Shown here piece by piece: positions 1,921-19,882 of a stretch of DNA of 20,000 nt. Under the pieces are notes generated by a model. The model was not told where the DNA came from. It saw nothing but the letters and a program-made list of their open reading frames with translations, and did no database searches. The stretch lies in IMG/VR virus record IMGVR_UViG_3300037067_009054. One strand, given 5' to 3'. This stretch comes from an uncultured virus (IMG/VR IMGVR_UViG_3300037067_009054) (taxonomy: Duplodnaviria > Heunggongvirae > Uroviricota > Caudoviricetes). Numbering within the stretch: the first letter of the stretch is position 1; each line of letters begins with the position of its first letter. The translations under genes were made by a program, and so were the position numbers.

Positions 1921-1945
1921 ATCGGTCCATCGTAATAGGGCCGAT
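1921..1945 (+). terminator. Intergenic stem-loop after the membrane-protein pair
   Basis: atcggtcc-N9-gggccgat, 8-bp stem with one T-G pair, starting just after the stop at 1915. Terminator role is inferred. Confidence 0.45.
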
Positions 1946-2001
1946 CTTATTCAATGAATAACTATTTTTATTTGAACTCCTGTACATCTTATGGTGAAAT
2001 C

Positions 2002-3204
2002 GTGAAAAATTGGTTCATTTTAGGAATTGTTGTCTGGGCCTGTCTTCTTGCTCTGACATGTACTGCTTTTGCGACTAATTGGGATGCACTTCCTACTTAT
2101 ACTTATACTGGTAGTACGTGGTCTGGCTTGCATTCCTTTATTGATACTTATGGTACTGGTACATATCTCGTCGGTTCCATGTCTACTACTTCGTCTACCT
2201 TTTATGTTGATCAAAATTATGTTCGCATAAAAGGTACCGTTGGTTTTCCGGCTGATGGTGACTATATGATAGGTGCTGGTATTTACACTGTACCTAGCCG
2301 TATCGTTGATTATAGTGGCGCGGGTAAATTTACTACGTCTAAAACCAGTGGCAATGCTATTGATATCAGTGGAACTGGCGTTGTTCTTGAGAATATGGAA
2401 ATTCTTAATTCGCGTGGGTCTTCCAGTACTGCCAATTGTCTGTACGTACATTCCGCCCAGCCTGAGTTGCATAACGTTCGTATTAGGAATGGTGCTGGCA
2501 ATGCTATACTTGCTGAAAATACACATGATCTCATTACTGATCGTGTATATGTTAGTAACTTGTGGTCTGATTTGGGTGTAACTGGCATTGGAACTGGTGT
2601 TAAGCTTGTTAATAGTAATACCGATCCTAGATTCAATGATATTACGGTGTGTTATGGCTACTGCGGTTATAACCTTACTGGTTCATCTGGTCTTATATCT
2701 AATACTATGCAGTGTTACGATGCAAATTATCCTACGATCATAGATCCTGCATCTAATGGCGCATGTGATGATATGACTTTTAGGATTGCCGTATTCGATG
2801 TTGGATATCGTGGTTCTAATGCTGAAGGTTTGTGGATGGGTTGGCAGAATTCCAATACCATTGATAATATCCAGATATATAACATTTGGGCGTATGGTCA
2901 TGCCAGTGGAGTTTCGATAGGTCATGGTACAAACATTGGTATTTATGGTGGTGGCATTTCATCTGATAATTATGCAATGTATCTTTATCAGGGTGTCAAT
3001 CCCATAACTATCCAAGGTATTAACATTATTAGTTCTGGTCATAACTACTATGCTCTCACGTTAAACAATCCTGGTTCTGCTACTTTGCTCGGAAATGAGT
3101 TCGATTCTTCACTTGCTGCGTATTTAACAGGTACCTATTATTTCGGTGGCAATCTCGGCACTGGATCTATTCAAGGTACTGTTTCGTGGAGTCATTTCAA
3201 TTAA
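2002..3204 (+). CDS. Secreted right-handed parallel beta-helix protein (pectin-lyase-like/NosD-like fold), paralog 1
   Basis: Likely GTG start at 2002 after SD GGTGA (1993-1997) rather than ATG 1954. Signal peptide KNWFILGIVVWACLLALTCTAFA; Asn/Gly/Ile-rich PbH1-like coils (GNAIDISGTGVVLENMEILN, LHNVRIRNGAGNAIL). Confidence 0.75.
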   Translation: MKNWFILGIVVWACLLALTCTAFATNWDALPTYTYTGSTWSGLHSFIDTYGTGTYLVGSMSTTSSTFYVDQNYVRIKGTVGFPADGDYMIGAGIYTVPSRIVDYSGAGKFTTSKTSGNAIDISGTGVVLENMEILNSRGSSSTANCLYVHSAQPELHNVRIRNGAGNAILAENTHDLITDRVYVSNLWSDLGVTGIGTGVKLVNSNTDPRFNDITVCYGYCGYNLTGSSGLISNTMQCYDANYPTIIDPASNGACDDMTFRIAVFDVGYRGSNAEGLWMGWQNSNTIDNIQIYNIWAYGHASGVSIGHGTNIGIYGGGISSDNYAMYLYQGVNPITIQGINIISSGHNYYALTLNNPGSATLLGNEFDSSLAAYLTGTYYFGGNLGTGSIQGTVSWSHFN

Positions 3205-3222
3205 TTAGGTTTAGGTGATGTC

Positions 3223-4398
3223 ATGAAAGGAATACTTGGAATTGTTGTGTTAGTTCTTATGAGCTTATTGTTTATTGGCATTGCTGGCTCTGAGGTTTTT
3301 ACCTACACTGGCAATACTGGTAGTGGCTTGGCTACATTTGTTTCTAATAATGGTGCTGGAACGTATCACGCTGTTAATGATATATTAGTTACTTCTCAGG
3401 TCAATATTCCCGTTGATCAAGTCAGATTTGAAGATATAGAATATACCATTTCAATGCCTAGTGGAAATGCTATTTATAACACAGGAAATGGTATCGAGTA
3501 TGAAGGTTGTACTATTCGACAATATAATACCGATACTAGTGTTAATTGCTTAGTTTTTCATAATGCATCTAACATTGGCAATGGCGTTGTTGTTGCTAGT
3601 CCACAAGTAATTGATACAGTCGTATATAATTACGGTAGTGGTATTGGTATCTCTCTATACAATCCTTGGATTAGTTATATCAAAGGATCATCTGTTAATG
3701 GATACGGTCATAGCCAGGGTATAGGTATAAAGTATGATGGCACAAGATGTATGGAACCTCATCTTACTGATGTAAATGTTGATCATGGATATTATGGAAT
3801 ATACATTGCTGGTATACAGGGTGTGTATGGGCAACGTGTCAGTTGCACTAATCAATTCCTTCCACTCGCGATTGATCCTAGCTCTGATTATATGCTGTGT
3901 TCTAATATATTGTTCAGTGATTCTCGGTTTGATGTTGGTTATTCTGGTGGTGAAGCTGTTACTGTTGGATGGGTTAATTATCCTACCCCAGTTGGTCTTA
4001 TTCAAACTATCAACTTCGATAATTGTGACATCGTAGGAAGTAGCGCAGGCATTTCCGTCATGTATGGAAAGTATATTACCATATCTAGGAGTCGTCTTTC
4101 TTCTATTCAGAACTGTCTCTATCTATATTCATATGTAGATAGGGCTTTGTTGACTGATTCCACTATTACTTCATTTAGCCAAAGTGTTCCTGCCATATGC
4201 AGTAGTGGTGATAATGTACTCATAAATGGAAATGGCTTTACTACATCGCCTTACACTGCCTGGTTCACCGATTCTAATAAGCGTTTTCTTATCAACTTTA
4301 ATAACCACGTTGCTAAGATTTGCATTGGCCCCGGTCAAATTCAGGTTCCGATCGTTGGTGATCCTAATTACGGTGTTGGTTATAATAGTAATCCTTAG
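3223..4398 (+). CDS. Secreted right-handed parallel beta-helix protein, paralog 2
   Basis: SD AGGTGAT before ATG; signal peptide MKGILGIVVLVLMSLLFIGIAGS. Shares TYTG..SGL..F....G.GTY, GNAI...G.G and IDP.S...C....F....FDVGY.G...GW with 2002..3204. Confidence 0.75.
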   Translation: MKGILGIVVLVLMSLLFIGIAGSEVFTYTGNTGSGLATFVSNNGAGTYHAVNDILVTSQVNIPVDQVRFEDIEYTISMPSGNAIYNTGNGIEYEGCTIRQYNTDTSVNCLVFHNASNIGNGVVVASPQVIDTVVYNYGSGIGISLYNPWISYIKGSSVNGYGHSQGIGIKYDGTRCMEPHLTDVNVDHGYYGIYIAGIQGVYGQRVSCTNQFLPLAIDPSSDYMLCSNILFSDSRFDVGYSGGEAVTVGWVNYPTPVGLIQTINFDNCDIVGSSAGISVMYGKYITISRSRLSSIQNCLYLYSYVDRALLTDSTITSFSQSVPAICSSGDNVLINGNGFTTSPYTAWFTDSNKRFLINFNNHVAKICIGPGQIQVPIVGDPNYGVGYNSNP

Positions 4399-4401
4399 TC
4401 A

Positions 4402-4425
4402 ATCCTCGGCCCGATGGCCGAGGAT
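4402..4425. terminator. Perfect hairpin at the convergence of the two transcription blocks; probable bidirectional terminator
   Basis: atcctcggcc-cgat-ggccgaggat, perfect 10-bp stem between the stop at 4398 (+) and the stop at 4435 (-). Confidence 0.7.
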
Positions 4426-4434
4426 AATATTTAT

Positions 4435-4725
4435 CTAGTCTGGTACAAAACACATTGATGAACTTGTTTGCTTTTCTTCTTTGTCTCGTGTTATTGTTCT
4501 GTATATCCATCCTTTTTTTACTCTTAGTCTCATAGTGTTTGTCATTAACGTTGATCCTTTCATGTTTTCCCATGTTCCCTTTGGTTCGTATATGTTTTCT
4601 ATCATCAATGATATTCTTGATGCTATTTTATCAGTTGTATTTGTGTCTATGTTCTCTCCTATTCTTCCATTTGCTACTTCTTCATTGATTATTTTCTCTA
4701 TTTCTTCATGTAAGTTAAATGTCAT
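4435..4725 (-). CDS. Hypothetical protein
   Basis: 96 aa; A-ending codon usage like neighbours; start overlaps the upstream stop; GAGG SD. Confidence 0.7.
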   Translation of the reverse strand: MTFNLHEEIEKIINEEVANGRIGENIDTNTTDKIASRISLMIENIYEPKGTWENMKGSTLMTNTMRLRVKKGWIYRTITRDKEEKQTSSSMCFVPD

Positions 4726-5063
4726 TTCTTATTCCTCAGTGACCATATATGTTTTCTAAAGCAACTTGGGCATATATCTAATTCTAATACAAATGGTTCT
4801 TCACTTATTGTGTTCATTCTCCTCATTGCAACTGTTATCGTTCCATGTTCTCTGTTTTCTTTATTGTCCCATGTCCATGTGTTTGCATGAAATGTTGTTT
4901 GTGGTAAATCTATTTCTTCTCTTTTTGCATTCCAACCATTGCTATCAAAATCCCATTCTGTGTGATTTGATTTACATTCTGTTCCACATATATCACATTT
5001 TATACTATCTAACACTTTTCTTTCTATCTTTTTTGTTTTTGTTACTTCTTTTATCATTATCAA
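4722..5063 (-). CDS. Hypothetical Zn-binding protein
   Basis: CDICG and CPSC Cys pairs; SD GGAGG near 5064-5070 (start may be the TTG at 5063 or the ATG at 5057). Confidence 0.7.
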   Translation of the reverse strand: MIMIKEVTKTKKIERKVLDSIKCDICGTECKSNHTEWDFDSNGWNAKREEIDLPQTTFHANTWTWDNKENREHGTITVAMRRMNTISEEPFVLELDICPSCFRKHIWSLRNKK

Positions 5064-5554
5064 TCCTCCCTCAGTTCGTCTCTTACTTTCATTAGTAATT
5101 TCCCTAACATGTCCTGTCCGAAAAAATATCCATCATCTGATACTACCACTCCCCAAAATGTATCCGTTGGCGAGCATTCATGTAATGGTAAATCTCCTGT
5201 ATCTAATAATTGTTTTGCTAAACAATCATTTTTGAATTTTAGCCTCAATCCTTCAAGCATTATTTTTTCTTTTTTCTTTTCCCAGTTTTTTATTACTTCT
5301 CCTTTTTCTTCTCTTAGTGCCCTTCCTGCCATCATTGCTGCATATGCTGTTGGTGCTATTCTTATCCATTCTTGCATTGCTGGATCTTTTGCTCTCTTTG
5401 ATTGATAGTAGTGTTCGTTTGCTTCATATATTTTCCATCCTCCTTTTGTTTTTTCGAATATTTTGTCTCTCCAAAGGTTTGATAGGAAACCGTGTTCCTC
5501 TTCTCTTATATAGAAGCATATATGCTCTTTTCCGTCTAATGTCTTTTTAATCAT
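5060..5554 (-). CDS. NADAR (YbiA-like) family protein
   Basis: Motifs GFLSNLW, NEHYYQ, LRLKF, LLDTGD..LHECSP.D.FWG and G..MLGKLLMKVR match the NADAR family pattern. Confidence 0.9.
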   Translation of the reverse strand: MIKKTLDGKEHICFYIREEEHGFLSNLWRDKIFEKTKGGWKIYEANEHYYQSKRAKDPAMQEWIRIAPTAYAAMMAGRALREEKGEVIKNWEKKKEKIMLEGLRLKFKNDCLAKQLLDTGDLPLHECSPTDTFWGVVVSDDGYFFGQDMLGKLLMKVRDELRED

Positions 5555-7014: not shown

Positions 7015-7342
7015 TGTATTTCACTGCCCCTTTCCCTGTTTTCATTTCTTCTATCATCAATTCCGTTTCTGTTATTTTTGTAATTACTCCATAGAATCTT
7101 TTTGGTGTTTTTCGCTGCTTACATGAATAATAATCCGCTCCGAATTCTATTGGATCTCCTTCTTTTAGGTCCCCTATTAAATATCTGTATTCTCCTCTTG
7201 CCCGGTTCATGAATTTTCTTTCCAGTCCTCCTGGTTTTGTCGGGTCTATGCTTATTATTGCCATCCAATTTTTTCCTCTTTTATGTGTTTCAAAAATTGG
7301 TGCTTCTGTTAGTGCTCCGTGGTCATGTTTTAGTATTACCAT
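6986..7342 (-). CDS. Hypothetical virus protein
   Basis: 118 aa; SD AGGAG upstream; codon usage matches neighbours; no function recognised. Confidence 0.75.
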   Translation of the reverse strand: MVILKHDHGALTEAPIFETHKRGKNWMAIISIDPTKPGGLERKFMNRARGEYRYLIGDLKEGDPIEFGADYYSCKQRKTPKRFYGVITKITETELMIEEMKTGKGAVKYSENNFEQIK

Positions 7343-10300
7343 CTACCAGTCTCCTAACAATGTCTTCTGTTTTCCATCTCTTAACTTGTCGTTGCGTAGC
7401 AACGACAAGTCTTCTCCGGTGCATTCTAGGATTCTTAGTACTGGTGGCAGTATTTGCTTGTTTATGTAGTAGTCTGTGTCTACTTGTAGACTCATCTTCA
7501 TTATGTAGTCTGGGTCTTCTGCCCTATCTACGAATTTTTCTTTTTGTTTCTTTCCTCGCATCCTACCTTTTATTATTACATAAGGTACTCTGTCTCCTAT
7601 ACTTGGTGCATTGCTTCCTCTCTTTTTCATTCTTTCTACTAGCTGTACGTGTGGTTGCTTGTTTTTATATGCTTGTGCTCCTTTCCCATATCTTTTCGTT
7701 ATTGTCAAGTCCTCTAGCATTTTTCTGTCTAGTGCCAAGTTTAACTTGTGTACATCTTTTATTGTTCTGTCTACCAGTTCTATTGCCTCTTTTACTTTTC
7801 CTTCTTTTAGTATCAGGTCTAGGCAGGTTGCCATTGTTTTCGTTGTTAAATTGCACCAGTCCCTTCTAACTGTTTCTATTCCTCTTACTTTTATCTTATC
7901 TTTTCCGTTTGGTTCTATCAGCCACAGGGCGTATCTTTTCTTTGCTAGTAGTATTCCTCTTCTCGCAAACGATTCGAACACCAGTTCCATTGGTTCCGGC
8001 AGAGTCTTTGTTACTTCTTCTGCTATTTTCTTTCCTATTGTCTCTGCTTCTTGCAGAGACAATGAATTTCCTTCTGTTCGTATTACTTTTACGAAAACTG
8101 AATCTGTGTTTTTTAGCAATATGTTTCCGCAAGAATCTGTAAATGTGTGTACATCTCTTATGGTCAAGTCGTATACGTATCCATTGTAGTTTTCACATGT
8201 TATATTCGTTTTTGTTTTTGTATTGTCTGCTTTTTCTTTTTCTTCTCTTCCTTTTGTTTGTATACTATATACGTTTTTTTCTTTTCTGTAATTTATGTTG
8301 TGTTTTATTTCCATCGTCGAAATTAATGTCGATATTCCTGATACCAATTCTATTGATACCGTTGCATATGCAAAGTTGTTTCTTTTGTATTTATCACTAA
8401 ATCCGTTCTTTTTCGAGAATTTTCTTGATCCGTCTCCTTCTATTAGTACTTCTAGTAATTTTTCTTTATATTCATCTTGCATGTTGTATGTGAATTTTGG
8501 CAGTTTTTTCTCATAAGCGCCGTGTCCACATAATGCAGTAAATACTGCTGCACTTATTCCGTTCATCATTTGTAGTTTTCTTGTTTCGTCTTTATATGTT
8601 GTTCCATTTGATAATGTTCTTATTTTTTTATTTGATTCAATTATACACGTTTCTCCATTTTTGAATAATGTGTGATATGCTATTTGCATTTTTTCTAACC
8701 ATATTACATCTGAATCACATATACTTGCTCCTAATCTCGATCCAAATGTTGAACTTCCGTTTGTTATGTATCCTCCTAACAATATGCACAATTGTTCTAA
8801 ATCGTTTCCTTTTATGTATCTCTTTACCAATACATTTTCCTTTCTGTTTGTCCATCCGAATTTTAGATATTCTTCATTGTATATCTCAAATTTCGATGTT
8901 TTTTCTCTTCCTTTATACATTTTCTTATATTCGAAGTCTTTTACATATTCATATAAGTCTATTGAGTTTATTTTGTTTTCTATTTCTGGTATCTTGCATT
9001 TATACATTCTTGTTCTGTTCATGTCTGTTGGTTTTGTTTCTATTAAATTTTCGTCCATGTAAGAATGATCTTCTGTTGTTATCGATTCTCCGTATTTCTG
9101 GTTTACTCTATATATCTTTTTATTTGTTTTGTGTCTCATTATCGTTTCTATTTGTTCCCATCCTTTATGTGTTAGTGCGTCATATTTCGTGCATTTTACG
9201 TATTCTTTTTCTCCTATCTTTTCTACTTTACTGTTTTGTTTGCATGATTCAAACAGTTCTTCTATTCTTATTACTTCTATCATTCCTTTTTTGTTTCTTA
9301 CTGTTACACATCTATCTTTTGTTATACTATCTCCATATACTACGTTGAAATTCGATTTTTTTACATCTTTCATGTTATCTATAACATCTACTGTTCTTAG
9401 GATATTTTCCCTTCCGAATGATGTTACGGCATTTGCAATTCTTAGGTCGTATAATCTCGCCCTTGCGTATCCAGAGTAACCATAGAAGCTGTTCAGTAGT
9501 ATTTTCAATGCATACTGTTTTGCATCTAAGAATGCTATTTCCTTTTCATCTTTCGTCTTTTTCATTTCTTTTTTAATTGCAATTCTTTTTTCTAATAGTT
9601 CGTTCAATATCTCTGGTACTATTCCAGGTAGTATACTTTCATCCACGAAGCACCCGCCTCCGGCTGGTGCTTGTATTAAGTTTTCGTTATTTATCTCCGA
9701 CCCGTCACCGTGTGACGGGTCCGTTACTGTTGAGTAGCATAAGTTGTATGCCATCATAATGGTTGGATATAGTGATTTGTAATCAAGTACTACTGTATCT
9801 TCGATTATTCCTTTTTCTGGTGTTAGTACTTCTCCTCCTTTCAGGTCTTTGTTTTCCTCGAATCTGTCCTCTGACATTTCCGAATCTGGTTTTGTTGATA
9901 CTACTCTATCATATTTTCTGAACCTTCTTAAAAGTAGGTTCTCAATCATGCCGGATTGCCCGCCGTTTGCAATGTCCTGTAGAAGTGAGCCACTTGCCTT
10001 TGACATTTCTATATATCTTTCTACTACTTTCATCTCATCCAGTAATTCCATTACTAGTCTTGCATCTCTTCTTGAATATGATATGAATTTCTTTAATCCT
10101 TCTCCTTCTTCGGCCCACATTTGTTCTATTTCTTTTGGGTCCACGTCTAGTTTTTCTATTTTCAAAAGTTCCTTTGCTACGTTTCTCAGAGTGTATTGCT
10201 TCAGTTTATATTTTGATTCCGTTGAAGCTCTTAGGATCGGTAGCAGGTCAATAATAACTTTTCCCGTCCATGTAACATTTGTCTGTGTTACTATCTTTTT

Positions 10301-11104
10301 TGCATACCACTTCGTGTTTATCTGCTTTATTTTTGCTCTTTCTTGTAGGTATGTGAAATCGAATTCATTCGAGTTGTAGCCAGCAATTATGTCAGGATCG
10401 TAATTCTTTAAAATTAGCATGAAGCTCGCAAGTAACCCGAATTCATCAAAACACGCCATTGTGTCCTTACGGATACAATCTATTTGCTTTCCTACTAAAA
10501 CCAAGTCGTTTAAACCATTATAAGCAGGGCTGAAAGCCATGCTTATCAGAATCACAGGTGACTTATCGGATGTTGGCATTTTTCCTTTGTCTGGTAGACA
10601 CTCAATATCGAAGGTCATTATTCTTATTGGTGCATTTGTTTCTACTTCGGTTCTTTTTATGTCTTTTTCATTTATTTCATTCCCGTCTGGTGTTTCTGCC
10701 CAGCTCATGCCACCAAGATCTTTGTCTATTAGAAATCGATTCTTGAATAATATGTCAGTTTCATATACTGCTTTTACTCCATCCACCATTTTTGCTCTTT
10801 CTCTTAAGTTTCTCACTTCTTTTGGATCTGTCGTAGTTACTTTAAACATTAACTTTTTTGATTTTTGATATCCAATTGGTTCGAATTTTTTTATTTCTTC
10901 TACTTCTGCATTTAATCTTTCTGCCAGTTCGTTCTTTACTATTTTTTTGTCTGCTTCTTCGTATATCCCTACATAGAAGTATGGTTTGAATCCTACTATT
11001 CTTTTTACTATGCTTGTTCCTTCTTTTGTCTTCCCGTAGAGTTTTATTACTGGATTTTTTTCGTTATCGTAAATGTAGTTTGCATCCAGTATCTGAAATA
11101 TCAC
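7343..11104 (-). CDS. polB: Family B DNA polymerase, euryarchaeal cellular-like, intein-containing
   Basis: ExoI FDIE, ExoII GYNSNEFDF, ExoIII YSRRD; Pol motifs DYKSLYP, KILLNSFYG and YGD|TDS (split by an intein); N-terminal GFKPYFY and YETDILF; C-terminal PIP-like QKTLLGDW. Confidence 0.97.
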   Translation of the reverse strand: MIFQILDANYIYDNEKNPVIKLYGKTKEGTSIVKRIVGFKPYFYVGIYEEADKKIVKNELAERLNAEVEEIKKFEPIGYQKSKKLMFKVTTTDPKEVRNLRERAKMVDGVKAVYETDILFKNRFLIDKDLGGMSWAETPDGNEINEKDIKRTEVETNAPIRIMTFDIECLPDKGKMPTSDKSPVILISMAFSPAYNGLNDLVLVGKQIDCIRKDTMACFDEFGLLASFMLILKNYDPDIIAGYNSNEFDFTYLQERAKIKQINTKWYAKKIVTQTNVTWTGKVIIDLLPILRASTESKYKLKQYTLRNVAKELLKIEKLDVDPKEIEQMWAEEGEGLKKFISYSRRDARLVMELLDEMKVVERYIEMSKASGSLLQDIANGGQSGMIENLLLRRFRKYDRVVSTKPDSEMSEDRFEENKDLKGGEVLTPEKGIIEDTVVLDYKSLYPTIMMAYNLCYSTVTDPSHGDGSEINNENLIQAPAGGGCFVDESILPGIVPEILNELLEKRIAIKKEMKKTKDEKEIAFLDAKQYALKILLNSFYGYSGYARARLYDLRIANAVTSFGRENILRTVDVIDNMKDVKKSNFNVVYGDSITKDRCVTVRNKKGMIEVIRIEELFESCKQNSKVEKIGEKEYVKCTKYDALTHKGWEQIETIMRHKTNKKIYRVNQKYGESITTEDHSYMDENLIETKPTDMNRTRMYKCKIPEIENKINSIDLYEYVKDFEYKKMYKGREKTSKFEIYNEEYLKFGWTNRKENVLVKRYIKGNDLEQLCILLGGYITNGSSTFGSRLGASICDSDVIWLEKMQIAYHTLFKNGETCIIESNKKIRTLSNGTTYKDETRKLQMMNGISAAVFTALCGHGAYEKKLPKFTYNMQDEYKEKLLEVLIEGDGSRKFSKKNGFSDKYKRNNFAYATVSIELVSGISTLISTMEIKHNINYRKEKNVYSIQTKGREEKEKADNTKTKTNITCENYNGYVYDLTIRDVHTFTDSCGNILLKNTDSVFVKVIRTEGNSLSLQEAETIGKKIAEEVTKTLPEPMELVFESFARRGILLAKKRYALWLIEPNGKDKIKVRGIETVRRDWCNLTTKTMATCLDLILKEGKVKEAIELVDRTIKDVHKLNLALDRKMLEDLTITKRYGKGAQAYKNKQPHVQLVERMKKRGSNAPSIGDRVPYVIIKGRMRGKKQKEKFVDRAEDPDYIMKMSLQVDTDYYINKQILPPVLRILECTGEDLSLLRNDKLRDGKQKTLLGDW
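7384..7410. repeat. Intragenic perfect inverted repeat (polB 3' end)
   Basis: acttgtcgttgc-gta-gcaacgacaagt; 12-bp perfect stem. Confidence 0.9.
8037..8063. repeat. Intragenic perfect inverted repeat (polB, just after the intein)
   Basis: attgtctctgc-ttctt-gcagagacaat; 11-bp perfect stem. Confidence 0.9.
8108..9328 (-). mobile_element. Intein (407 aa) with LAGLIDADG homing endonuclease domain, inserted in the YGD|TDS catalytic motif of PolB
   Basis: Begins SITKDRCV right after YGD and ends NILLKN before TDS; block B TTEDHS; block F VYDLTI; LAGLIDADG-like LLGGYITNG and LLEVLIEGDG. AT-richer than the flanking exteins. Confidence 0.95.
9648..9721. repeat. Twin intragenic inverted repeats in polB
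   Basis: aagcacc[c]gcc-tcc-ggc[t]ggtgctt (9648-9672) and perfect gacccgtcac-cgt-gtgacgggtc (9699-9721). Confidence 0.85.
10458..10546. repeat. Second pair of intragenic inverted repeats in polB
   Basis: attgtgtcc-ttac-ggatacaat (10458-10479, one G-T) and ataagca[g]ggct-gaa-agcc[a]tgcttat (10520-10546). Confidence 0.7.
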
Positions 11105-11607: not shown

Positions 11608-11608
11608 G

Positions 11609-12370
11609 TTAACGTACTCCGTGGAACGTTGGTACTCTTTCTACTCTACGTGCTTCATTTAAGTCGTAGTCGTATATATGCAATGAATCATTGTCGTCAA
11701 TGATTCTTGCTATTTGACATCTATTCGGTTTAATTACTTCTCTATTTAGCATCTCTACTATTGCTACTAGATTTGATTGCCATGCCCCAAATAGATCTCT
11801 TGATCTCCATGATAGGTGTACATCTACTATATTTTGTTCATACCAACGTAACCAAATTCTTTGTAAGCACGGACTTGATGTGTTGTACATTCCATCTCTT
11901 TCTGCTTCCCATGTAATTGCTTGATTGAAGTTTGATGCCGTTTTTGAATCCATTTGTGATTTTAGTAAATCACTCATTGCTTCTAATTGATTTAATGTTC
12001 CGTTTTGTTCAAAATCGCTTAATCCTCTATATTGCTTTAGTCTTTCGTAGTATAGGTAATCAAATCTTTCGCTTTCTTTTGTTTTGTTGTTGTATTCACT
12101 TAGGAATTCACTTGTGAATTCTTTGCAGTATTCTTCAAGTCTCTTCCCTCCAAATTTGTATTGTGGATGTGTTTCGTGTCTTTCTATTTGTCCTATTGCG
12201 TCTCCCCTTAAAATGATTTTTTGGCACGAATCCTTTGCTTTTTTTCCTTCTCCTGGTGTTCCGAAAATTAATTCGGTTCCGTGTGTTAATACGAATTCAA
12301 TTGCAGCCGTCCAGGCATTGTGAAAGCTTTGTGATGCTATTGTGTTCGTTTGTGATAGTTTAATCACCAT
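11609..12370 (-). CDS. thyA: Thymidylate synthase, archaeal ThyA-like
   Basis: FDYLYYERL, AITW, catalytic PCLQ, RSRD..GAW.SN, SLHIY. Confidence 0.88.
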   Translation of the reverse strand: MVIKLSQTNTIASQSFHNAWTAAIEFVLTHGTELIFGTPGEGKKAKDSCQKIILRGDAIGQIERHETHPQYKFGGKRLEEYCKEFTSEFLSEYNNKTKESERFDYLYYERLKQYRGLSDFEQNGTLNQLEAMSDLLKSQMDSKTASNFNQAITWEAERDGMYNTSSPCLQRIWLRWYEQNIVDVHLSWRSRDLFGAWQSNLVAIVEMLNREVIKPNRCQIARIIDDNDSLHIYDYDLNEARRVERVPTFHGVR

Positions 12371-12373
12371 ATA

Positions 12374-13012
12374 TTATTGCTCCTGTATTGGACTGATAAC
12401 ATTTTTCCTAGTTTTTGGTATGTCTTTTCGTCCAGTAGATTTAGTGCTTCCCTTAAGTTCTTTTCCGTAAGTTTCACCACTTCCTTTCACCTTCAGTTCA
12501 TATGAGTAAGTAGTTTCTGTGCTGCATATTTGGTTTATGTCTTCTTTTCCCAGGTTTTGTTCTGCCACATTTATCGGTATCTTTATTTTTCCTTCTTCTA
12601 CGTACTTGTTTGCCAGTAGTGGGTATGTATCTACGAACTTCTTTGGAATTATCGTTCTCACTGTCCTCTTGCTGCGCAAGAGGCCAATTGTTCCTGTTTT
12701 GTTATATACTGCATCTTTCTTTCCCTTCGAGAATGCATCTGGTCCCCATGTTTCTTGTTCTACTTTTTTTCCTATTTCTATTACTTTTTCTTGTAACGTT
12801 CTTTTTTGTTCCATTAATTCATTTACTTCATTTTCTATTCCCAGTTCGTTTATTATATCTATTACTTTTTTTCTTGCTTCTTCTAATTTCTTGTCTCCTT
12901 CTAAACTTTCTATCCACGCTGTTTTTACTTTTATCACTGCTTGCATTGATTCTATTTCTTCCATCTCCGCTTCCAGTTGAGCTGGAAGCGGTTTACCTGG
13001 AATTATTTTCAT
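12374..13012 (-). CDS. Hypothetical protein with N-terminal coiled coil and basic tail
   Basis: 212 aa; E/K-rich helical N-half; codon usage matches neighbours. Confidence 0.75.
   Translation of the reverse strand: MKIIPGKPLPAQLEAEMEEIESMQAVIKVKTAWIESLEGDKKLEEARKKVIDIINELGIENEVNELMEQKRTLQEKVIEIGKKVEQETWGPDAFSKGKKDAVYNKTGTIGLLRSKRTVRTIIPKKFVDTYPLLANKYVEEGKIKIPINVAEQNLGKEDINQICSTETTYSYELKVKGSGETYGKELKGSTKSTGRKDIPKTRKNVISPIQEQ
12665..12683. repeat. Intragenic inverted repeat
   Basis: cctcttgc-tgc-gcaagagg; 8-bp perfect stem. Confidence 0.65.
12967..12991. repeat. Intragenic perfect inverted repeat near the 5' end of 12374..13012
   Basis: ccgcttccag-ttgag-ctggaagcgg; 10-bp perfect stem. Confidence 0.85.
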
Positions 13013-13204
13013 TTACTGTTCCCTCGCATCTACTAGTCTTATGTACATTGTATATGGTCCTGCTTCTTCGTAATTCTTTGGTGGAAATATCTGTTTACTT
13101 CTCATTTGTTGTGTTTCATTTATTTCCATTACTATCAGTTCTCCGTTTTCGATTCTATCTGCCGTCTTTCTCAAGTTTTCTATTATATCGTTGTTGTTTA
13201 TCAT
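13013..13204 (-). CDS. Small hypothetical protein (63 aa)
   Basis: ATG at 13204 follows a strong SD AGGAGG (13214-13219). The longer ORF start at 13255 would run through an intergenic hairpin. Confidence 0.7.
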   Translation of the reverse strand: MINNNDIIENLRKTADRIENGELIVMEINETQQMRSKQIFPPKNYEEAGPYTMYIRLVDAREQ

Positions 13205-13221
13205 CCAAAAATTCCTCCTAT

Positions 13222-13249
13222 CTGCGTCGTGCCCTATGGCACGACGCAG
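13222..13249. promoter_or_regulatory. Intergenic hairpin directly upstream of an SD
   Basis: ctgcgtcgtgcc-ctat-ggcacgacgcag; 12-bp perfect stem between the stop at 13252 and AGGAGG. Confidence 0.75.
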
Positions 13250-13251
13250 GT

Positions 13252-13797
13252 TCACAGTCCTAGATTCAAATCTACTGGTACTTCGTCGATTACTGCCGCT
13301 GCTGGTTCTTCTGCTTCCGGTTCTGCTTTTCCGGTTTCTTTTAGGTTTTTAACCATGTCTGGGAACTGGTCCATGTATATGTCTTCGATGTCTTTTTTTG
13401 AGATGTTTAAGGCTGTGCATATTGCATCTTTCTTTGCTCTCGTTCCTGCAATGGTCGGGATGTAGTATTTCCTTCTGTCTGGTATTGCTGTTCCGTCTGG
13501 TAATAGGAAATCTGCAAATTCCCTTTCACATGCCGATCCTACTCCGTCTGCATCTTTGTCATCGAATCTTGCATGATATATTGATTCAACTACCAGGCCC
13601 AGTTTCTCTCCTGTTATCATGGTTGTTTTTACCATTCTCAATTCTTTCAATCCCATTTTATTTGCTATTGCAATTGCCCCATCTCCGGTAAGGTCAATTG
13701 TCAATTTCTTTTGTTTTGTTTTTTTGTCCTTGAATGGGCTTGTATAAAAAAATGAGATGTCGAATTGTATTCCTTTTAGGTGTTCTGGTATTGTCAT
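13252..13797 (-). CDS. Putative single-strand annealing recombinase (Rad52/Sak/ERF-like)
   Basis: ADGVGSA...IAGTRAKKDAICTALNI matches the G.G.A...A.TRA..RA...ALGI pattern of viral annealases; acidic tail; SD GGTGGAG. Confidence 0.65.
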   Translation of the reverse strand: MTIPEHLKGIQFDISFFYTSPFKDKKTKQKKLTIDLTGDGAIAIANKMGLKELRMVKTTMITGEKLGLVVESIYHARFDDKDADGVGSACEREFADFLLPDGTAIPDRRKYYIPTIAGTRAKKDAICTALNISKKDIEDIYMDQFPDMVKNLKETGKAEPEAEEPAAAVIDEVPVDLNLGL

Positions 13798-15383: not shown

Positions 15384-15384
15384 T

Positions 15385-15669
15385 TTATTCCTCGTTTATT
15401 TCTACTGTTTGGTCAACATCGGTTCTAGCGCCCCAGAATTTTGTTCCGGCGTCGCACAGTCCTATTTCGTTCATCTCTAATAATTTCTTCATGCTTTTTG
15501 AAGTTGTTTTCATACTGCTTTCTGAAAGGTATATTTTTTTTAGTGCTTTTGTTTTGTTCATCACCTCAAGTACATCACACATATTCGGTCTGTAAGAAAA
15601 ATGAACTGCTGTCGTTTTGGATGTCACCCTATTCATGTTTTCTCGTTTTCCCAGTATCAATACTTTCAT
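15385..15669 (-). CDS. DUF1699 family protein (Methanosarcinales-associated)
   Basis: VHFSYRP, KTTSKS..KLLEM..I and WGARTD match the recalled DUF1699 pattern VHLAFRPS...KTISKS..MFLEM..I...WGHRKD. Confidence 0.75.
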   Translation of the reverse strand: MKVLILGKRENMNRVTSKTTAVHFSYRPNMCDVLEVMNKTKALKKIYLSESSMKTTSKSMKKLLEMNEIGLCDAGTKFWGARTDVDQTVEINEE

Positions 15670-15692
15670 GAATTTTACCTGTGTTGTTCAAA

Positions 15693-16484
15693 CTATTTCA
15701 ATCTGTCGGTTCTATTTTCTTCGTTTGTTGCAATTTCCAATGTATGATATCCATATGTTTCATTCCCTCTCATTTCATCCCATTTGTTTCTCATTAATTT
15801 TGATTTTCTCATTATTCTGTCTATTTGGCTTATTACACCTCCATTTATGTTATTTATTATCCTACAAAATGCCAAATCTGCTTCACTCTGCGATTGGTAT
15901 CCAGCCTCTTTCCAGAATCCGTGATACAATTTCTTGAATTTTTCTCCGTAAGGTTTTGATCCTATCTTTACTAGAAGATCGTTATCTTCTAGTGATTTAC
16001 ATAACCAATTTATTGCTTCTTGGTTTTTTACTATTTCCTTCCTTTCGCCTATTGGCCTCAATGTTACTGTGAAGAATCTCCCGGCATCGTAAATTGCTAT
16101 TTCTCCCGTTTCGTGGCTTCCTACTTTTCGTCCGTGTTTTTCACCTGGCAAATATCCTTCACATAAAATATGAAGTCCGTTCCCGCTTGGTGATGGTTCG
16201 GTGTAGCTATTCAATTTATCTATTATCTGCTGTGCTCCGTACCATTTTCCTATTTCATCCAAGTCTATTCCACAGAATGGATCATCTTCTGTAAAAATAA
16301 ACCCTATTCCCGATAAGCAGTCACTGTTCATCCATGCATTAAACGCTTTGTCGAATGTCATGTGGCACTTGGTGTTTGATGTCGAAAGTAATTTTCCTTT
16401 TGTATCGGTTGGTATCTTTGTTTTCTTTTCACCTCTTATTACATTTCGCCAGCAACACCATTGGTTCCAGTCCTGTAGCTTCAT
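15693..16484 (-). CDS. NrS-1-type primase-polymerase (AEP domain plus helical bundle), no fused helicase
   Basis: QWCCW..KKTKIP, GIGFIF..DPFCGIDLD, SYTEPSPSGNGLHI, IYDAGRFFTVT, SQSEADLAFC, SKLMRNKWD. Confidence 0.88.
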   Translation of the reverse strand: MKLQDWNQWCCWRNVIRGEKKTKIPTDTKGKLLSTSNTKCHMTFDKAFNAWMNSDCLSGIGFIFTEDDPFCGIDLDEIGKWYGAQQIIDKLNSYTEPSPSGNGLHILCEGYLPGEKHGRKVGSHETGEIAIYDAGRFFTVTLRPIGERKEIVKNQEAINWLCKSLEDNDLLVKIGSKPYGEKFKKLYHGFWKEAGYQSQSEADLAFCRIINNINGGVISQIDRIMRKSKLMRNKWDEMRGNETYGYHTLEIATNEENRTDRLK

Positions 16485-17078
16485 TCATTTTTCCTTCTTT
16501 CTGTATTTATCTACTTGTTCTGCCCTGTTCTTTAGCATGTCTGCCATTACTAATAGTGTTTCTGCTTGTGCGTGTGATGCCAATCTCCATGCTATCATAA
16601 ATGCTGCTTTTTCTCCGTTCGGCCATGAGTCCACTATATCTTCTATGTTTATGTCTTTTCCATATATTACTTTTATCACCGTTGTGTTTATTCTTGCTTC
16701 ATCTTCACCCGACAGTCCAATTGTTGGTATTTTCTGTTTCGTAATCTTCTTTATCTTCAATTTTTTTTTCTCTATTCCTTCCCCTTGTTTTAATAGTTCT
16801 ATTAGAGTTACGTCATCTATCTTCGAAAGGTCTTTCGCATTCAGTGCGAACAGTTCTGTTTGCACTATAGGCAGTACTGCTAGTTCATTGAATGTACCTG
16901 TCTTTCCCTTTTCCCTCATTAGTTTTATTGCTCTTCGTAGTGTATCTTTCGCTGAGAAGTGTTCTGTGTTTAATTGTAATTCCTTGTATTCTATATCATT
17001 TTCTGTCATCAAGTGTTGCAAGTCGAAGTTTGGTTCTTTTTCTTTTTTTACGTAAATTGTAATCATTGTTACCATCAC
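16485..17078 (-). CDS. Hypothetical protein
   Basis: 197 aa ORF abutting the prim-pol start (TGA-ATG); its C-terminus is paralogous to the small ORF at 18023-18154. Confidence 0.75.
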   Translation of the reverse strand: MMVTMITIYVKKEKEPNFDLQHLMTENDIEYKELQLNTEHFSAKDTLRRAIKLMREKGKTGTFNELAVLPIVQTELFALNAKDLSKIDDVTLIELLKQGEGIEKKKLKIKKITKQKIPTIGLSGEDEARINTTVIKVIYGKDINIEDIVDSWPNGEKAAFMIAWRLASHAQAETLLVMADMLKNRAEQVDKYRKKEK

Positions 17079-17091
17079 GCTTCTTTTTTAT

Positions 17092-17493
17092 TCACTCCAT
17101 AAAACCCATTGATTGTAATTCCGCATTGTTATCATAGTTATCTCTTGTTTCTACTTCAATAGTAAGCCACCAAATATAGTCGTTCACGTCTTTTTCCCAT
17201 CTTTTCTTGGTAATATGATATATTTTATGTAATCTTGAGTCGTTTCCGTGTCCTCTACACCATTTTGAAGGGTGTAATGGGCAATTTTTGCAATACATGA
17301 AATGCCTGTTATTAATTTTGTCTACTTCTTCGCATATTTTGCATGTTTGCCAAGGCATTTTGTTGTATTTTACTTTGTATCCTTCCCATCCTTCTACTAG
17401 TAGTCGTGTGAATTTTTTAATTGATTCGTTTATTGCATCGCTTGATATATCATCAAGCGGGATTTGAACTAAATCATCGTTGTTGTCGTTCAT
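17092..17493 (-). CDS. Hypothetical Cys-rich protein
   Basis: CKIC...CKNCPL...C; ATGA overlap with the upstream gene. Confidence 0.75.
   Translation of the reverse strand: MNDNNDDLVQIPLDDISSDAINESIKKFTRLLVEGWEGYKVKYNKMPWQTCKICEEVDKINNRHFMYCKNCPLHPSKWCRGHGNDSRLHKIYHITKKRWEKDVNDYIWWLTIEVETRDNYDNNAELQSMGFME
17439..17459. repeat. Intragenic inverted repeat near the 5' end of 17092..17493
   Basis: cgcttgat-atatc-atcaagcg; 8-bp perfect stem. Confidence 0.6.
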
Positions 17494-17723
17494 TTCCCTT
17501 CTTCTCCTATTTCATATCTATATATTTTTCCAAATGGTAATCGTATTCCTATGTAAATATTGTTTCTATTTCCTTTTTCTGTGAATAATGCTCCAATTGC
17601 TTCATTAAATAAATCAAATGTGTCCATTTTTAATGTTTTTTCTAATGCGTCTTCTAAATCTTTTGCTTCTATTTCTGCTAATTGTTCTTCTGTTTCTAAA
17701 TCTTCTAGTAAATATGTTTGCAT
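17490..17723 (-). CDS. Small acidic hypothetical protein
   Basis: 77 aa; SD AAGGAG just after the hairpin at 17735-17762. Confidence 0.75.
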   Translation of the reverse strand: MQTYLLEDLETEEQLAEIEAKDLEDALEKTLKMDTFDLFNEAIGALFTEKGNRNNIYIGIRLPFGKIYRYEIGEEGK

Positions 17724-17734
17724 AAGTTTCTCCT

Positions 17735-17762
17735 TAATTGGCCCGCTGTGGCGGGCCGATTA
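17735..17762. promoter_or_regulatory. Intergenic hairpin directly upstream of an SD
   Basis: taattggcccgc-tgtg-gcgggccgatta; 12 bp with one T-G; followed on the - strand by AGGAG and ATG 17723. Confidence 0.75.
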
Positions 17763-17769
17763 TGTTTTT

Positions 17770-17982
17770 TTATTCCTCGTTATTACATAGTGGACAACAA
17801 TTACAAATTTTATTATGTTCTATGTGTTTTTTGTAGTCAAATTTGTTGTCGAATATATTGTCTTTGAAATAATGTTGTAATCCATATGCTACTCCCTCTA
17901 ATGTTTCAGTTTTGAATGTTCTTCCTGTTCCTATTGATATTTTATATCTTCCATCTGCTAATCTAGTTACTGCGAATGTCAT
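17770..17982 (-). CDS. Small hypothetical protein with C-terminal His/Cys cluster
   Basis: 70 aa; SD AAGGAGG; H..H...CNCCPLC. Confidence 0.75.
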   Translation of the reverse strand: MTFAVTRLADGRYKISIGTGRTFKTETLEGVAYGLQHYFKDNIFDNKFDYKKHIEHNKICNCCPLCNNEE

Positions 17983-17995
17983 TTTTCCTCCTTAT

Positions 17996-18023
17996 AGCTA
18001 GTCGGCCTGCGGGTCGACTAGCT
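17996..18023. promoter_or_regulatory. Intergenic hairpin directly upstream of an SD
   Basis: agctagtcggcc-tgcg-ggtcgactagct; 12 bp with one G-T; followed on the - strand by ataAGGAGG and ATG 17982. Confidence 0.75.
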
Positions 18024-18154
18024 CAAATTGATCCAATCCATTCGTTATTCTTTTCTGCGTAAGGATCTGATGTTTTTGCTTTATTTTCTAGCATATCTGC
18101 GAATATTCGTAGTTCGTTCCTTTTTTGGTGCTGGCAAAGTCTCCAAGCTATCAC
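18023..18154 (-). CDS. 43-aa ORF (or gene remnant) paralogous to the C-terminus of 16485..17078
   Basis: Hand translation from GTG: VIAWRLCQHQKRNELRIFADMLENKAKTSDPYAEKNNEWIGSI*, compared with MIAWRLASHAQAETLLVMADMLKNRA. Not in the supplied ORF track. Confidence 0.6.
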   Translation of the reverse strand: MIAWRLCQHQKRNELRIFADMLENKAKTSDPYAEKNNEWIGSI

Positions 18155-18177
18155 CCTATATCACTTTTTATTTCCTT

Positions 18178-18201
18178 GGTAGTCGCTTTCAAGCGACTAC
18201 C
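18178..18201. promoter_or_regulatory. Hairpin with the DUF932 stop codon in its loop
   Basis: ggtagtcgct-ttca-agcgactacc; 10-bp perfect stem; followed on the - strand by AAGGA. Confidence 0.75.
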
Positions 18202-19373
18202 TTTGCTAGGATTTTATTGTTGTCTGCTGTCATCGATCCTGCGAATTTTGCCAGGTCGTGTTCTCTATCTACACCGAATTTTTGTGCTACTCTTGTCAGC
18301 CCTTCTACCAATGCATAACCTGTTCCCCTGTCTTCTTGGTCGATTGTTTCATCTCCCATTAGCATTCCTGCAAGAGCTGCTATCTCTGATTTTGACATTT
18401 TGGCTTCACTGGTTAGGTTTTTCAATGTTGTATCGATGTTGGTTATTTTTATTTCTTTTGATTCTCTCAGTTCCTCGGCCCATACATCGAATAGCTGTCC
18501 ATTTTTCATTACATTTGCCAGTCCTGCTCCTATTGCCTCGATCCATACCTTGCTCATCTTTGCGACAATTTTTTGTCCATATATTTGTTCCGATAGCCTT
18601 TCTCCTCGGTGTACTTTGTGCATTACTGTGTCTTTTATGTGTAGATTTGAGCAGGCCCAGTTGTAGAATCCCACGTTGCCGTTTGCGGCCCCGCCTCCAA
18701 CGTCCGAATTGCTGAAGCTCATCATGCCGGAGAACATTTTTCCCTTCCCAATGTCATATGTTCTTTCAGGGTCCAGAATTTCTACGTACATGAATCCTTC
18801 GCTCAGTGAGCCTTTATCTATCGTCAGTGGTTTTTCTCCTTCTATTTTCCTGATAGCGTTTATGCTACCCACTTGCGTTGCGATCTCTGCCAGTGCATCG
18901 TAGTTATCTAAGATTAGGTATTCGTTTCCTAGGAATGCCCTCATGGTATCATCCATTGTCCTGATCAATTGTACAGATTCTTTTCCTCTCAGCCATGCGT
19001 TCATATTGTATTCAGCTAGTCCCTCCGGCCCCTTTTCTTTGCAGTCGTCGAAGTAATTTTTGTTCCCCATTGATCCCCTAATCAACTGTCCTTTTGCCCA
19101 GTTATTAGGTTTCGTTGCCATTGTTGCACCGTTTTCATCTGGGAACTCTACTACCATTTCTCCATTTACGTCTTTTACTGTAATTTTCTTTGCCTGTACT
19201 CCCAGGTTTTTCGTTTCCATTTTCTTTTGAGCCAGTATTCCAAGCATCTCCCTGGTGTTGTTTTTTCCAAACACCAAATCTCCCATGTTCACGTTTTTCT
19301 CATCCAGTACCATCGCTTTCGGCGATGGTACTATTTCGTTTCTAAGGTCCAATGTTTCGATTTCTTCTACCAT
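18189..19373 (-). CDS. DUF932-like phage/plasmid protein
   Basis: RAFLGNEYLILDNYDAL, SNSDVGGGA...G.Y...CSNL and H.G motifs; ATG at 19373 lies 8 nt after GGAG. Confidence 0.75.
   Translation of the reverse strand: MVEEIETLDLRNEIVPSPKAMVLDEKNVNMGDLVFGKNNTREMLGILAQKKMETKNLGVQAKKITVKDVNGEMVVEFPDENGATMATKPNNWAKGQLIRGSMGNKNYFDDCKEKGPEGLAEYNMNAWLRGKESVQLIRTMDDTMRAFLGNEYLILDNYDALAEIATQVGSINAIRKIEGEKPLTIDKGSLSEGFMYVEILDPERTYDIGKGKMFSGMMSFSNSDVGGGAANGNVGFYNWACSNLHIKDTVMHKVHRGERLSEQIYGQKIVAKMSKVWIEAIGAGLANVMKNGQLFDVWAEELRESKEIKITNIDTTLKNLTSEAKMSKSEIAALAGMLMGDETIDQEDRGTGYALVEGLTRVAQKFGVDREHDLAKFAGSMTADNNKILAKVVA
19306..19332. repeat. Intragenic perfect inverted repeat near the 5' end of the DUF932 gene
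   Basis: agtaccatcgc-tttcg-gcgatggtact; 11-bp perfect stem. Confidence 0.9.
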
Positions 19374-19410
19374 ATCCAATTCTCCAATTTAGTCGCGCTC
19401 GCGATCTTTT

Positions 19411-19842
19411 TTATAACCATCTCTGCCGTAATGCGTATCCACCTGAGTTGTGTTTATGCTTATTGTAATTTCTATCTCCATTTACATGATCGTTTGATGG
19501 ACATTTCTTTTCTCCTATGCATGTGAATCCATTTCTGTATAGCGTACTTGATAAATTATAAACTAATGCAAATCCCATGTCCATTCCGCATCCTCCAATT
19601 GTTATTCCGTCGTGTGTTTTATGCAATTTATCTCCCATCGCAATTGCCGCTTTGTATGAAATGTCTAATGGTTCGTTATTTCGCATTACTATAAGTGAAA
19701 TTGCTCTTGTCATTCTATTGCTTGAGCAATAATTTAATTTTGTGAAAATAGTATCTCCAGGTTTTAGTAATTTTTTTAGTGATTTTATTGCTTCTTCTTT
19801 TTCTTGTATTTCTTTTTGTAATTGTGCTTTAGATTTAGTCAT
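19411..19842 (-). CDS. Virus hypothetical protein with GGCGMDMGF motif
   Basis: 143 aa; SD AGGAGG; LKPGDTI..MTRAI..GGCGMDMGF.LVYNL looks like a recurrent phage hypothetical family. Confidence 0.75.
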   Translation of the reverse strand: MTKSKAQLQKEIQEKEEAIKSLKKLLKPGDTIFTKLNYCSSNRMTRAISLIVMRNNEPLDISYKAAIAMGDKLHKTHDGITIGGCGMDMGFALVYNLSSTLYRNGFTCIGEKKCPSNDHVNGDRNYNKHKHNSGGYALRQRWL

Positions 19843-19854
19843 GTTTTCCTCCTA

Positions 19855-19882
19855 AAGCCTCGCTCCATCAGGTGCGAGGCTT
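19855..19882. promoter_or_regulatory. Hairpin with the upstream gene's stop in its loop, directly before an SD
   Basis: aagcctcgc[t]cc-atca-gg[t]gcgaggctt; followed on the - strand by tAGGAGG and ATG 19842. Confidence 0.75.

Follow-up and report, generated by a model that had tools for sequence, protein, structure and literature searches.

Short hairpins within and between the genes of an uncultured virus family: a possible case of self-perpetuating DNA palindromes

The locus and its relatives

The uncultured virus IMG/VR IMGVR_UViG_3300037067_009054 (Caudoviricetes) carries many short-loop hairpins, both inside its genes and between them, and these hairpins are the subject of the present analysis. 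The DNA analysed, hereafter the window, is a 20 kb part (20,000 nucleotides) of a contig of about 78 kb. Positions 4435-19842 form a minus-strand gene arm that encodes NADAR, a helicase, a family B polymerase with an intein, thymidylate synthase, DUF1699 and an NrS-1-type primase. A sequence-only reading of the window had listed about 18 inverted repeats, and had proposed that they may be selected on the template DNA strand or an antisense RNA, for instance as priming sites, as template-strand promoters or as cruciform protein-binding sites. We infer a methanogen host because, of 14 control genomes, that of Methanosarcina acetivorans was the only one to match DUF1699. When 392 methanogen-class genomes were searched at the DNA level, the 150 matches listed included polB-type matches and zero CRISPR spacers.

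The window sequence recurs without any difference over long pieces in two DNA runs (X1 and X2) from two studies (landfill and groundwater). A further record (L004) falls within the window and is identical to it. In total, three near-complete related genomes and four fragments were found; scans of viral contigs with single proteins recovered no relatives. The window was compared with the three near-complete genomes, G001 (67.6 kb), G002 (69.1 kb) and G003 (69.4 kb). Thymidylate synthase identity is 65–68% for these three, and G002 and G003 are 87% identical across 52 kb. The G002 record is complete, with direct terminal repeats (L018-L021). Genes of the relatives were called with a simple custom script, which gave 94–100 open reading frames (ORFs) at 89–91% coverage and possibly a few wrong junction labels.

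Hairpin richness is a trait of the virus family

Nine perfect stems of at least 10 bp are present in the window, versus a mean of 0.10 and a maximum of 2 in synonymous-codon shuffles (n=500) and a mean of 0.05 in block shuffles (n=500). The excess over chance proposed from the sequence alone is thereby upheld. All eight perfect stems then listed were found again at their positions and a ninth was added at 15970-15993 (Table 1), and the figure of about 18 inverted repeats is closely matched by the 20 hairpins with a score of at least 8 that a strand-symmetric scan yields. The stem sequences had been called unrelated. This needs to be qualified, as their loop-side ends are mostly GC, GCC or GCT and the hairpins at 17735, 17996 and 19855 have orthologues in the relatives.

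Perfect stems amount to 4.5 per 10 kb in the window and to 3.0, 6.5 and 6.2 in G001, G002 and G003, respectively. Control loci with an NrS-1-type primase hold only 0.29 per 10 kb when viral (79 of 79 loci) and 0.49 when cellular (69 of 79 loci, those of at least 5 kb), and 400 kb of chromosome from seven genomes taken as the host's class hold 0.32. Since the relatives are dense in hairpins while primase loci and methanogen-class chromosomes are sparse, hairpin richness is a trait of this virus family and not of the primase or of the likely hosts. Over the window and the relatives, 126 of 151 hairpins are perfect. An Rfam search of the window returned 0 matches, and a sigma-70 promoter scan stayed at chance level. 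A terminator scan gave 21 hits versus 14.8 in shuffles, all on the + strand, a surplus due to the T-richness of that strand. In an unrelated viral locus (L040:2930, 8062 and 9529), three similar perfect hairpins are each followed by the same 9-nt sequence; they constitute a separate repeat family.

Table 1. Hairpins and selected genes of the window. SD, Shine-Dalgarno sequence.
Position	Strand	Setting	Description
1690..1717		Coding, + gene 1580-1915	11 bp, one C.A on + (A.C on mRNA-like strand)
1921..1945		Junction between co-oriented + genes	8 bp with a loop of 9 nt; one T.G on + (mRNA-like strand there)
4402..4425		Convergent junction of + and - gene arms	Perfect 10 bp
7384..7410		Coding, near polB 3' end	Perfect 12 bp, GNA triloop on +; same codons overlapped by unrelated 15-bp hairpin in G002/G003; none in G001
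8037..8063		Coding, polB	Perfect 11 bp; absent from G001-G003
9648..9672		Coding, polB	Imperfect 11 bp, one C.T
9699..9721		Coding, variable polB loop	Perfect 10 bp; different hairpin (8413) in same loop of G002
10458..10479		Coding, polB	9 bp, G.T on + (A.C on mRNA-like strand)
10520..10546		Coding, polB	12 bp; centre shared with G002 7574; two compensatory pairs, amino acids changed (MAFSP vs LAFSE)
11685..11706		Coding, thymidylate synthase gene	Perfect 9 bp; missing from six related sequences
12665..12683		Coding	Perfect 8 bp, GNA triloop on -
12967..12991		Coding, near start of ORF 12374-13012	Perfect 10 bp; both arms GC-richer than orthologous codons of G001-G003
13222..13249		Junction	Perfect 12 bp; order on -: stop codon, hairpin, SD, ATG at 13204
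15970..15993		Coding, NrS-1-type primase gene	Perfect 10 bp; newly listed; absent from G001-G003
17439..17459		Coding	8 bp; 9 bp in G003 (66753)
17735..17762		Junction, 11 nt before ATG at 17723	G003 copy (66686) perfect; A.C on mRNA-like strand through one change in window
17996..18023		Junction, 13 nt before ATG at 17982	Orthologue G002 66439 perfect, with other loop
18178..18201		Spans stop codon of ORF 18189-19379	Perfect 10 bp
19306..19332		Coding, near 5' end of ORF 18189-19379	Perfect 11 bp
19855..19882		Junction, 12 nt before ATG at 19842	Flanks near-identical to G002 65301; tip wholly replaced, one pair shorter
7343..11104	-	Gene	Family B DNA polymerase with intein; candidate template-switching enzyme
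13252..13797	-	Gene	Probably a single-strand annealing protein like Rad52/RecT; TM 0.52-0.54 between its Atlas model and named clusters; conservation in G001-G003
15693..16484	-	Gene	N-terminal part of an NrS-1-type primase-polymerase, with HBD domain
17092..18027	-	Small genes in a row behind hairpin-SD units	DNA-run contigs show forms without one or two of these genes

Junction hairpins sit at gene borders and mark gene cassettes

Two classes of hairpins can be told apart: coding hairpins, and junction hairpins located after a stop codon beside a Shine-Dalgarno (SD) sequence or at convergent gene ends. Junction hairpins occupy 45 of 113 co-oriented gaps of at least 25 nt and 11 of 24 convergent junctions, versus 0 of 23 divergent junctions (Fisher p=8e-5 for gaps of at least 25 nt). 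A hairpin ends at most 65 nt upstream of 5/24, 12/94, 17/100 and 19/99 start codons in the four sequences, versus 4.9% for random windows, and 37 of these 53 start-proximal hairpins end 0–5 nt before the SD core. Spacing this tight is suggestive of selection on the junction copies, whether they act as DNA signals, as mRNA elements or, like the PeSL elements discussed below, as recombination borders. A crude TATA-like pattern, which hit 6 of 46 divergent starts, was found ahead of 0 of 40 SD-adjacent hairpins. No U tract follows the stem, the counts for the two strands being 0 and 4 of 130 hairpins with a background of 5%. The idea of an antisense terminator was rejected, an A-rich run preceding only 4 of 130 hairpins (background 5%).

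The junction hairpins are associated with changes in gene content. Left arms recur at different loci for several hairpins, the same hairpin is found with different genes behind it, and three different hairpin tips occur in the window, G002 and G003 upstream of a gene that is nearly identical in them. Within the window's own population, contig joints show that small genes were dropped at hairpin-SD borders: joints from 17486 to 17983 and from 17486 to 18027 occur in X1 and X2, and a joint from 17486 to 17735 occurs in X1 only. Over 17092-18700 the read depth halves and contigs break in both runs, and several gene-content forms co-exist in the population. ORF 18189-19379 is missing from G002 and G003. 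The stretch 18024-18153 behind it is the remnant of a gene 3' end, the gene being whole in G002 (92% identical).

Mismatches are biased with gene direction

For the minus-strand gene arm, the sequence-only reading had reported G-T pairs on the + strand and no internal A-C. The G-T pairs at 17739/17758 and 18005/18014 were recovered by the scan, and that at 10463/10474 was read from the sequence. Internal A-C is mostly missing, as claimed, with one exception in a weak AT-rich stem (5208/5227); other window stems carry T-C, C-T, G-A and T-T mismatches. The T-G pairs at the flanking or loop-closing positions 8036/8064, 13221/13250, 12977/12981 and 19317/19321 are also present, but positions of this kind show no significant bias. 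In a strand-symmetric scan of the four sequences, the ratio of A.C to G.T on the mRNA-like strand was 7:2 inside stems (p=0.10), 27:20 just outside them (p=0.31) and 8:3 inside longer loops (p=0.14).

The mismatches of the window alone are too few for an asymmetry, which is visible only together with the relatives. A wobble-permissive scan gave 21:4 for A.C versus G.T, with shuffles about even; some of its rows are common to G002 and G003 and some are only end extensions. Between G002 and G003 the ratio was 16:3 in near-perfect stems and 19:16 in degraded stems (neutral expectation 0.49–0.56), and 10:1 (p=0.015) for the same data under a codon-aware model with outer pairs excluded. A single-mismatch scan, from which two rows without gene direction were left out, gave 14:5 when tallied by gene direction and 13:4 after removal of two rows that represent other registers of perfect hairpins. 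The same scan gave 11:8 by genome strand, and 5:1 for minority-strand genes. The G-T/A-C bias is real but modest, and it is tied to gene direction.

Comparison with transversions shows which class of mismatch is missing. In 39 near-perfect hairpins, A.C on the mRNA-like strand was observed 10 times for 37.6 expected under neutrality (0.27), transversion mismatches 11 times for 41.7 (0.26), and G.T on the mRNA-like strand once for 30.5 (0.03); all these expectations are inflated, one genome having been required to be perfect, and only the ratios count. The G.T deficit on the mRNA-like strand has p=0.007 versus the rest and p=0.018 versus transversions. Of the earlier strand claim, the G-T/A-C bias thus survives as a gene-linked property of the family. 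Selection of the template strand for wobble tolerance is left unsupported, because template G.T should then exceed transversions and template A.C should match them, and the data are the reverse. Nor does the missing G.T fit selection for pairing in the mRNA, which would be expected to pass through G.U. These results suggest that the folding strand is the mRNA-like (non-template) DNA strand and not the template.

Loops and stems carry traces of template switching

Among 55 hairpins compared between G002 and G003, 36 are retained, where "retained" means at most one broken pair, a definition that lowers the stem figure in what follows. In these retained hairpins, divergence reaches 25–30% in loops, 12–14% in flanks and 4–5% in stems, and 11 compensated pairs stand against 15 one-sided changes. 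Compensatory changes in related viruses, to which the sequence-only reading had pointed as a check, do therefore exist, and the window stem at 10520 adds two when aligned with G002. Of three non-coding rows marked as lost, two are the same hairpin, whose loop length changed, and the third is a coding copy with a wrong label. No usable stem variant was present in DNA-run contigs among the matches listed, which were other organisms or relatives.

Exact reverse-complement loops account for 4 of 28 changed loops in a list typed by hand from the comparisons, for 0.25 expected (p about 1e-4). Triloops are also far from random: of 25 non-redundant triloop hairpins, 15 have GNA on one or the other strand, versus 16% of chance stems (p=8e-7), and the closing pair is C-G in 22. 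By strand, GNA triloops number 11 on the template and 5 on the mRNA-like strand. A central RY is present in 33 of 39 GCN-closed tetraloops, UUCG in 0 of 85 tetraloops, and GNRA at a single locus. Loops with a sheared G:A pair are stable in DNA generally. For loops of 3 nt, such a pair has been described in the N4 promoter (PMC4496689). The footprints of template switching published in two studies (PMC8604942; PMC8794818) are loop inversion and arm homogenisation. Exact loop inversions and perfect or homogenised arms match these footprints and therefore argue for template switching at the DNA level. The hairpins behave as DNA hairpins and not as ordinary mRNA stem-loops, which is supported by these observations.

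Coding hairpins are gained and lost

Coding hairpins come and go between lineages, with amino-acid changes. For stems of at least 9 bp, polB contains none in G001 and six in G002. The window polB has its own hairpins, located partly at the same codons as those of the relatives, with other sequence and other amino acids. Some coding hairpins predate the split between G001 and G002, and one lineage has since lost them. Shared coding stems have a GC content of 61% (250 positions) versus 44% for private ones (135 positions; p=0.007). The window polB also contains an intein, at about 8095-9270, which G001-G003 lack; it is free of strong hairpins, as are the homing-endonuclease genes of G002.

Other genes of the virus family

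The ORF at 13252-13797 probably encodes a Rad52/RecT-like annealing protein, as judged from its structural model in the Atlas. It adjoins a 528-aa protein (13797-15383), possibly one that binds single strands, whose N-terminal part is beta-rich and whose linker is rich in Pro/Ala/Glu. AlphaFold models of the two proteins were poor (pLDDT 47 and 46, respectively) and were not used. Two primases occur in the family: the short NrS-1-type protein, which lacks a helicase (window 15693-16484), and, in the relatives, an additional 996-aa Prim-Pol/zinc-finger protein (L020:12695-15685). Beside polB (window 5060-5554 and 11101-12370) lie NADAR, a small gene and an archaeal-type thymidylate synthase gene; a dCMP deaminase is also present in G002. 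Positions 1954-4398 of the window encode two paralogous beta-helix-like proteins with signal peptides, probably adhesins. They gave no family matches, and other genes take this place in the relatives. G002 further encodes PEGA-domain, nuclease and glycosyltransferase-like genes. Searches for terminase, portal and major capsid families gave zero matches in G002 (98 ORFs by Pfam, 30 by PHROG), and PDB and Atlas searches with three large G002 proteins were empty.

Discussion

We propose, with a probability of about 0.5, that these hairpins are self-perpetuating short palindromes in transcribed viral DNA, whose arms are copied onto each other and whose non-template strand is the one that folds. 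Polymerase template switching would copy one arm onto the other, so that quasi-palindromes are perfected regardless of the codons they lie in, and would also yield paired changes and sometimes inverted loops. The traces of such switching are seen in the sequences; the enzyme could be the polymerase of the virus, possibly with assistance from the annealing protein. The non-template strand, freed behind RNA polymerase, would fold into the hairpin, which may be the cause of the strand pattern observed. In a yeast study, mutation of quasi-palindromes was reportedly linked to transcription. On the folded strand, stem cytosines could be shielded from deamination, or repair templated by the other arm could turn G.T/G.U into G-C. 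Either process would remove G.T from the mRNA-like strand only, would leave A.C and transversion mismatches, and would make old stems grow GC-rich. The single assumption that the non-template strand folds and is shielded or repaired would account for the gene-linked bias, the GC gain and the absence from divergent gaps. Copies inside genes would be tolerated passengers, gained and lost. Those between a stop codon and the next SD sequence, or at convergent ends, would persist and form small repeated families, and may serve as borders for the swapping of small early genes, probably via the viral annealing protein. More tentatively, erasure of G.T on the displaced non-template strand could act as a strand-specific, GC-biased conversion ratchet, by which selfish palindromes strengthen themselves, rewrite proteins including the DNA polymerase, and are co-opted as promoter-less hairpin-SD borders that shuffle early genes; this extended version we regard as a speculation with the odds against it.

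Several points weigh against the proposal of self-perpetuating palindromes. The first strand-symmetric tally inside stems was not significant. The mismatch test comprises 22 events from one genome pair, and over five settings the p value for G.T versus transversions ranges from 0.007 to 0.08. Counter-examples with G.T on the mRNA-like strand exist at window 1921, at G002 7154, 59655 and 15129, and at G003 27959. Lineage-specific coding hairpins usually differ from the orthologous sequence in both arms, for which one switch is insufficient, the relatives being distant. The lists of shared and private coding stems were compiled by hand, and their GC difference may arise because stable stems survive, and not from a ratchet. 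No repair enzyme was identified. Finally, the distance of junction hairpins from the start codon stays at 10–19 nt, also where the gap is long or the hairpin lies within the upstream gene; a neutral process would not predict this.

An alternative is that a viral or host protein recognises the extruded hairpin or cruciform, by its short loop and loop-side GC(Y) core, at gene borders inside transcription units. Such a DNA signal could act in pausing, termination, re-initiation or DNA organisation, and selection rather than conversion would keep the stems. The closeness of so many upstream hairpins to the SD core, the loop-side GC/GCC/GCT consensus, the central RY of the tetraloops and the preference of GNA triloops for the template all fit this reading, as do the retention of all non-coding stems between G002 and G003 (4% difference versus 12% in flanks) and the age of some coding hairpins, older than the G001/G002 split. 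It is nevertheless unlikely as the whole explanation, given that template G.T is not favoured over transversion mismatches, that loops are the most variable part and invert, that hairpin positions and density differ twofold between lineages, and that no candidate reader protein was identified. Cruciform binding by a protein, one of the functions raised by the sequence-only reading, may or may not take place. Rather unlikely, too, is a primary role as mRNA stem-loops, in which intercistronic and 3'-end hairpins would block exonucleases or mark processing sites just ahead of each ribosome-binding site, in the manner of selective RNA processing or of the Mimivirus hairpin rule. The placement after stop codons and at convergent ends, with none at the divergent junctions, and the RNA folding energies of the main stems (-17 to -26 kcal/mol) agree with such a role; methanogen mRNA is often processed 20–30 nt before start codons, according to one study (PMC5499594). 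Yet the very class missing on the mRNA strand is G.U, by way of which RNA helices usually change; UUCG is absent, GNRA is confined to one locus, no U tract follows on either strand, and coding hairpins and loop inversions are left unexplained. A role in mRNA may be a secondary use of the junction copies, and palindrome perpetuation, a DNA signal and mRNA stem-loops can be compatible with each other. A-to-I editing, by which A.C would be restored in RNA, was dropped, the evidence for it being none.

The two specific functions suggested from the sequence alone fare worse. Hairpin priming signals exist for other primases, namely RSF1010 RepB' and ssiA, and the NrS-1-type primase gene is common to the window and G001-G003, so that priming sites for this enzyme on single-stranded template could be imagined. 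They are very improbable in view of the lack of enrichment in 148 other NrS-1-type loci, viral and cellular alike, and of a bias that follows genes (13:4) and not the genome strand (11:8). The hairpins are also too sparse for lagging-strand priming, with a single one from 27.2 to 54.5 kb of G001 and none from 43.5 to 59.9 kb of G003, both stretches being of at least 16 kb. Hairpin promoters on the template strand, read by a viral RNA polymerase as in phage N4, have in their favour the C-G-closed GNA triloops, which are similar to the loop of N4, where a G:A pair is sheared (PMC4496689), and the lack of a TATA-like box before SD-adjacent hairpins. However, the RNA polymerase family was not found in 98 of 100 ORFs of the complete relative G002 (the two left out are of 120 and 170 aa), nor in 30 searched by PHROG, and a DxDGD-type motif is absent from the four sequences, although a very divergent enzyme could escape, several large proteins being without assignment. 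Moreover, no hairpin lies at the 23 divergent junctions; SD-adjacent hairpins mostly have tetraloops, GNA occurs in both orientations, and N4 itself has three promoters of conserved sequence. We consider this possibility as remote as that of priming sites. Palindromes can trouble assemblers, but chance or an assembly artefact is next to negligible as an explanation of nine stems where shuffles give 0.10, of long pieces with identical sequence in two runs, from two studies, and of orthologous hairpins in separate records. Integron attC sites and REP/RAYT elements, whose hallmarks are a tyrosine recombinase or HUH transposase and extra-helical bases or a fixed terminal motif, were rejected: these enzyme families are absent from 98 G002 ORFs, the stems are perfect and of 24–40 nt, and Rfam gave no match.

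Among published systems, the closest to self-perpetuating palindromes in genes is that of Nematomorpha mitochondria, for which PMC6649704 describes perfect inverted repeats inside protein genes, with gain and loss by lineage, and proposes conversion between arms and a parasitic nature. The virus shares with it the excess of perfect arms inside coding DNA and the turnover between lineages. It differs from it in that the Nematomorpha repeats reach 284 bp, while the virus stems are of 9–19 bp, GC-rich, in many cases at gene junctions, and marked by a strand-specific mismatch deficit. Template switching in yeast and rRNA (PMC8604942; PMC8794818) likewise homogenises arms, inverts loops at arms longer than 9 bp and changes amino acids. 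It is rare in yeast (39 genes), unlike the virus hairpins, which are 10–20 times denser than in control DNA, linked to junctions and biased with gene direction. The PeSL elements of T4-like phages (PMC4122927) are repeated units of stem-loop and SD sequence before small variable genes and are tied to gene gain and loss, as are the junction hairpins. Their promoter sits between stem-loop and SD sequence, whereas the virus hairpin abuts the SD sequence, no promoter was found, and coding copies exist too. With the promoters of the N4 virion RNA polymerase (PMC4496689), the hairpins have in common short stems, 3-nt G..A loops and a very high stability as DNA; they depart from them by the polymerase not found, the dozens of sites, loops that vary and occur in both orientations, and the lack of any copy at divergent junctions. 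The hairpin rule of Mimivirus (PMC4402537) also involves palindromes without fixed sequence at gene 3' ends. There a viral RNase III cleaves the hairpin as an RNA signal, in contrast to the unmatched RNase III family in G002 and the depletion of G.U on the mRNA strand. No account of such hairpins in a methanogen virus was found in the literature searched, most subscription journals lying outside it. New here are the junction class and its lack at divergent junctions, together with the statistics on loops and the result on mismatches.

A general caution follows from the mismatch analysis. Since erasure of G.T on one strand mimics tolerance of G.T on the other, a G-T/A-C asymmetry can name the folding strand only after comparison with transversion mismatches. 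If the proposal of self-perpetuating palindromes is true, the hairpins would naturally record which of the two DNA strands folds in vivo, and the virus family would offer a compact and testable case of a mutational process that shapes the proteins and the gene order of an archaeal virus.

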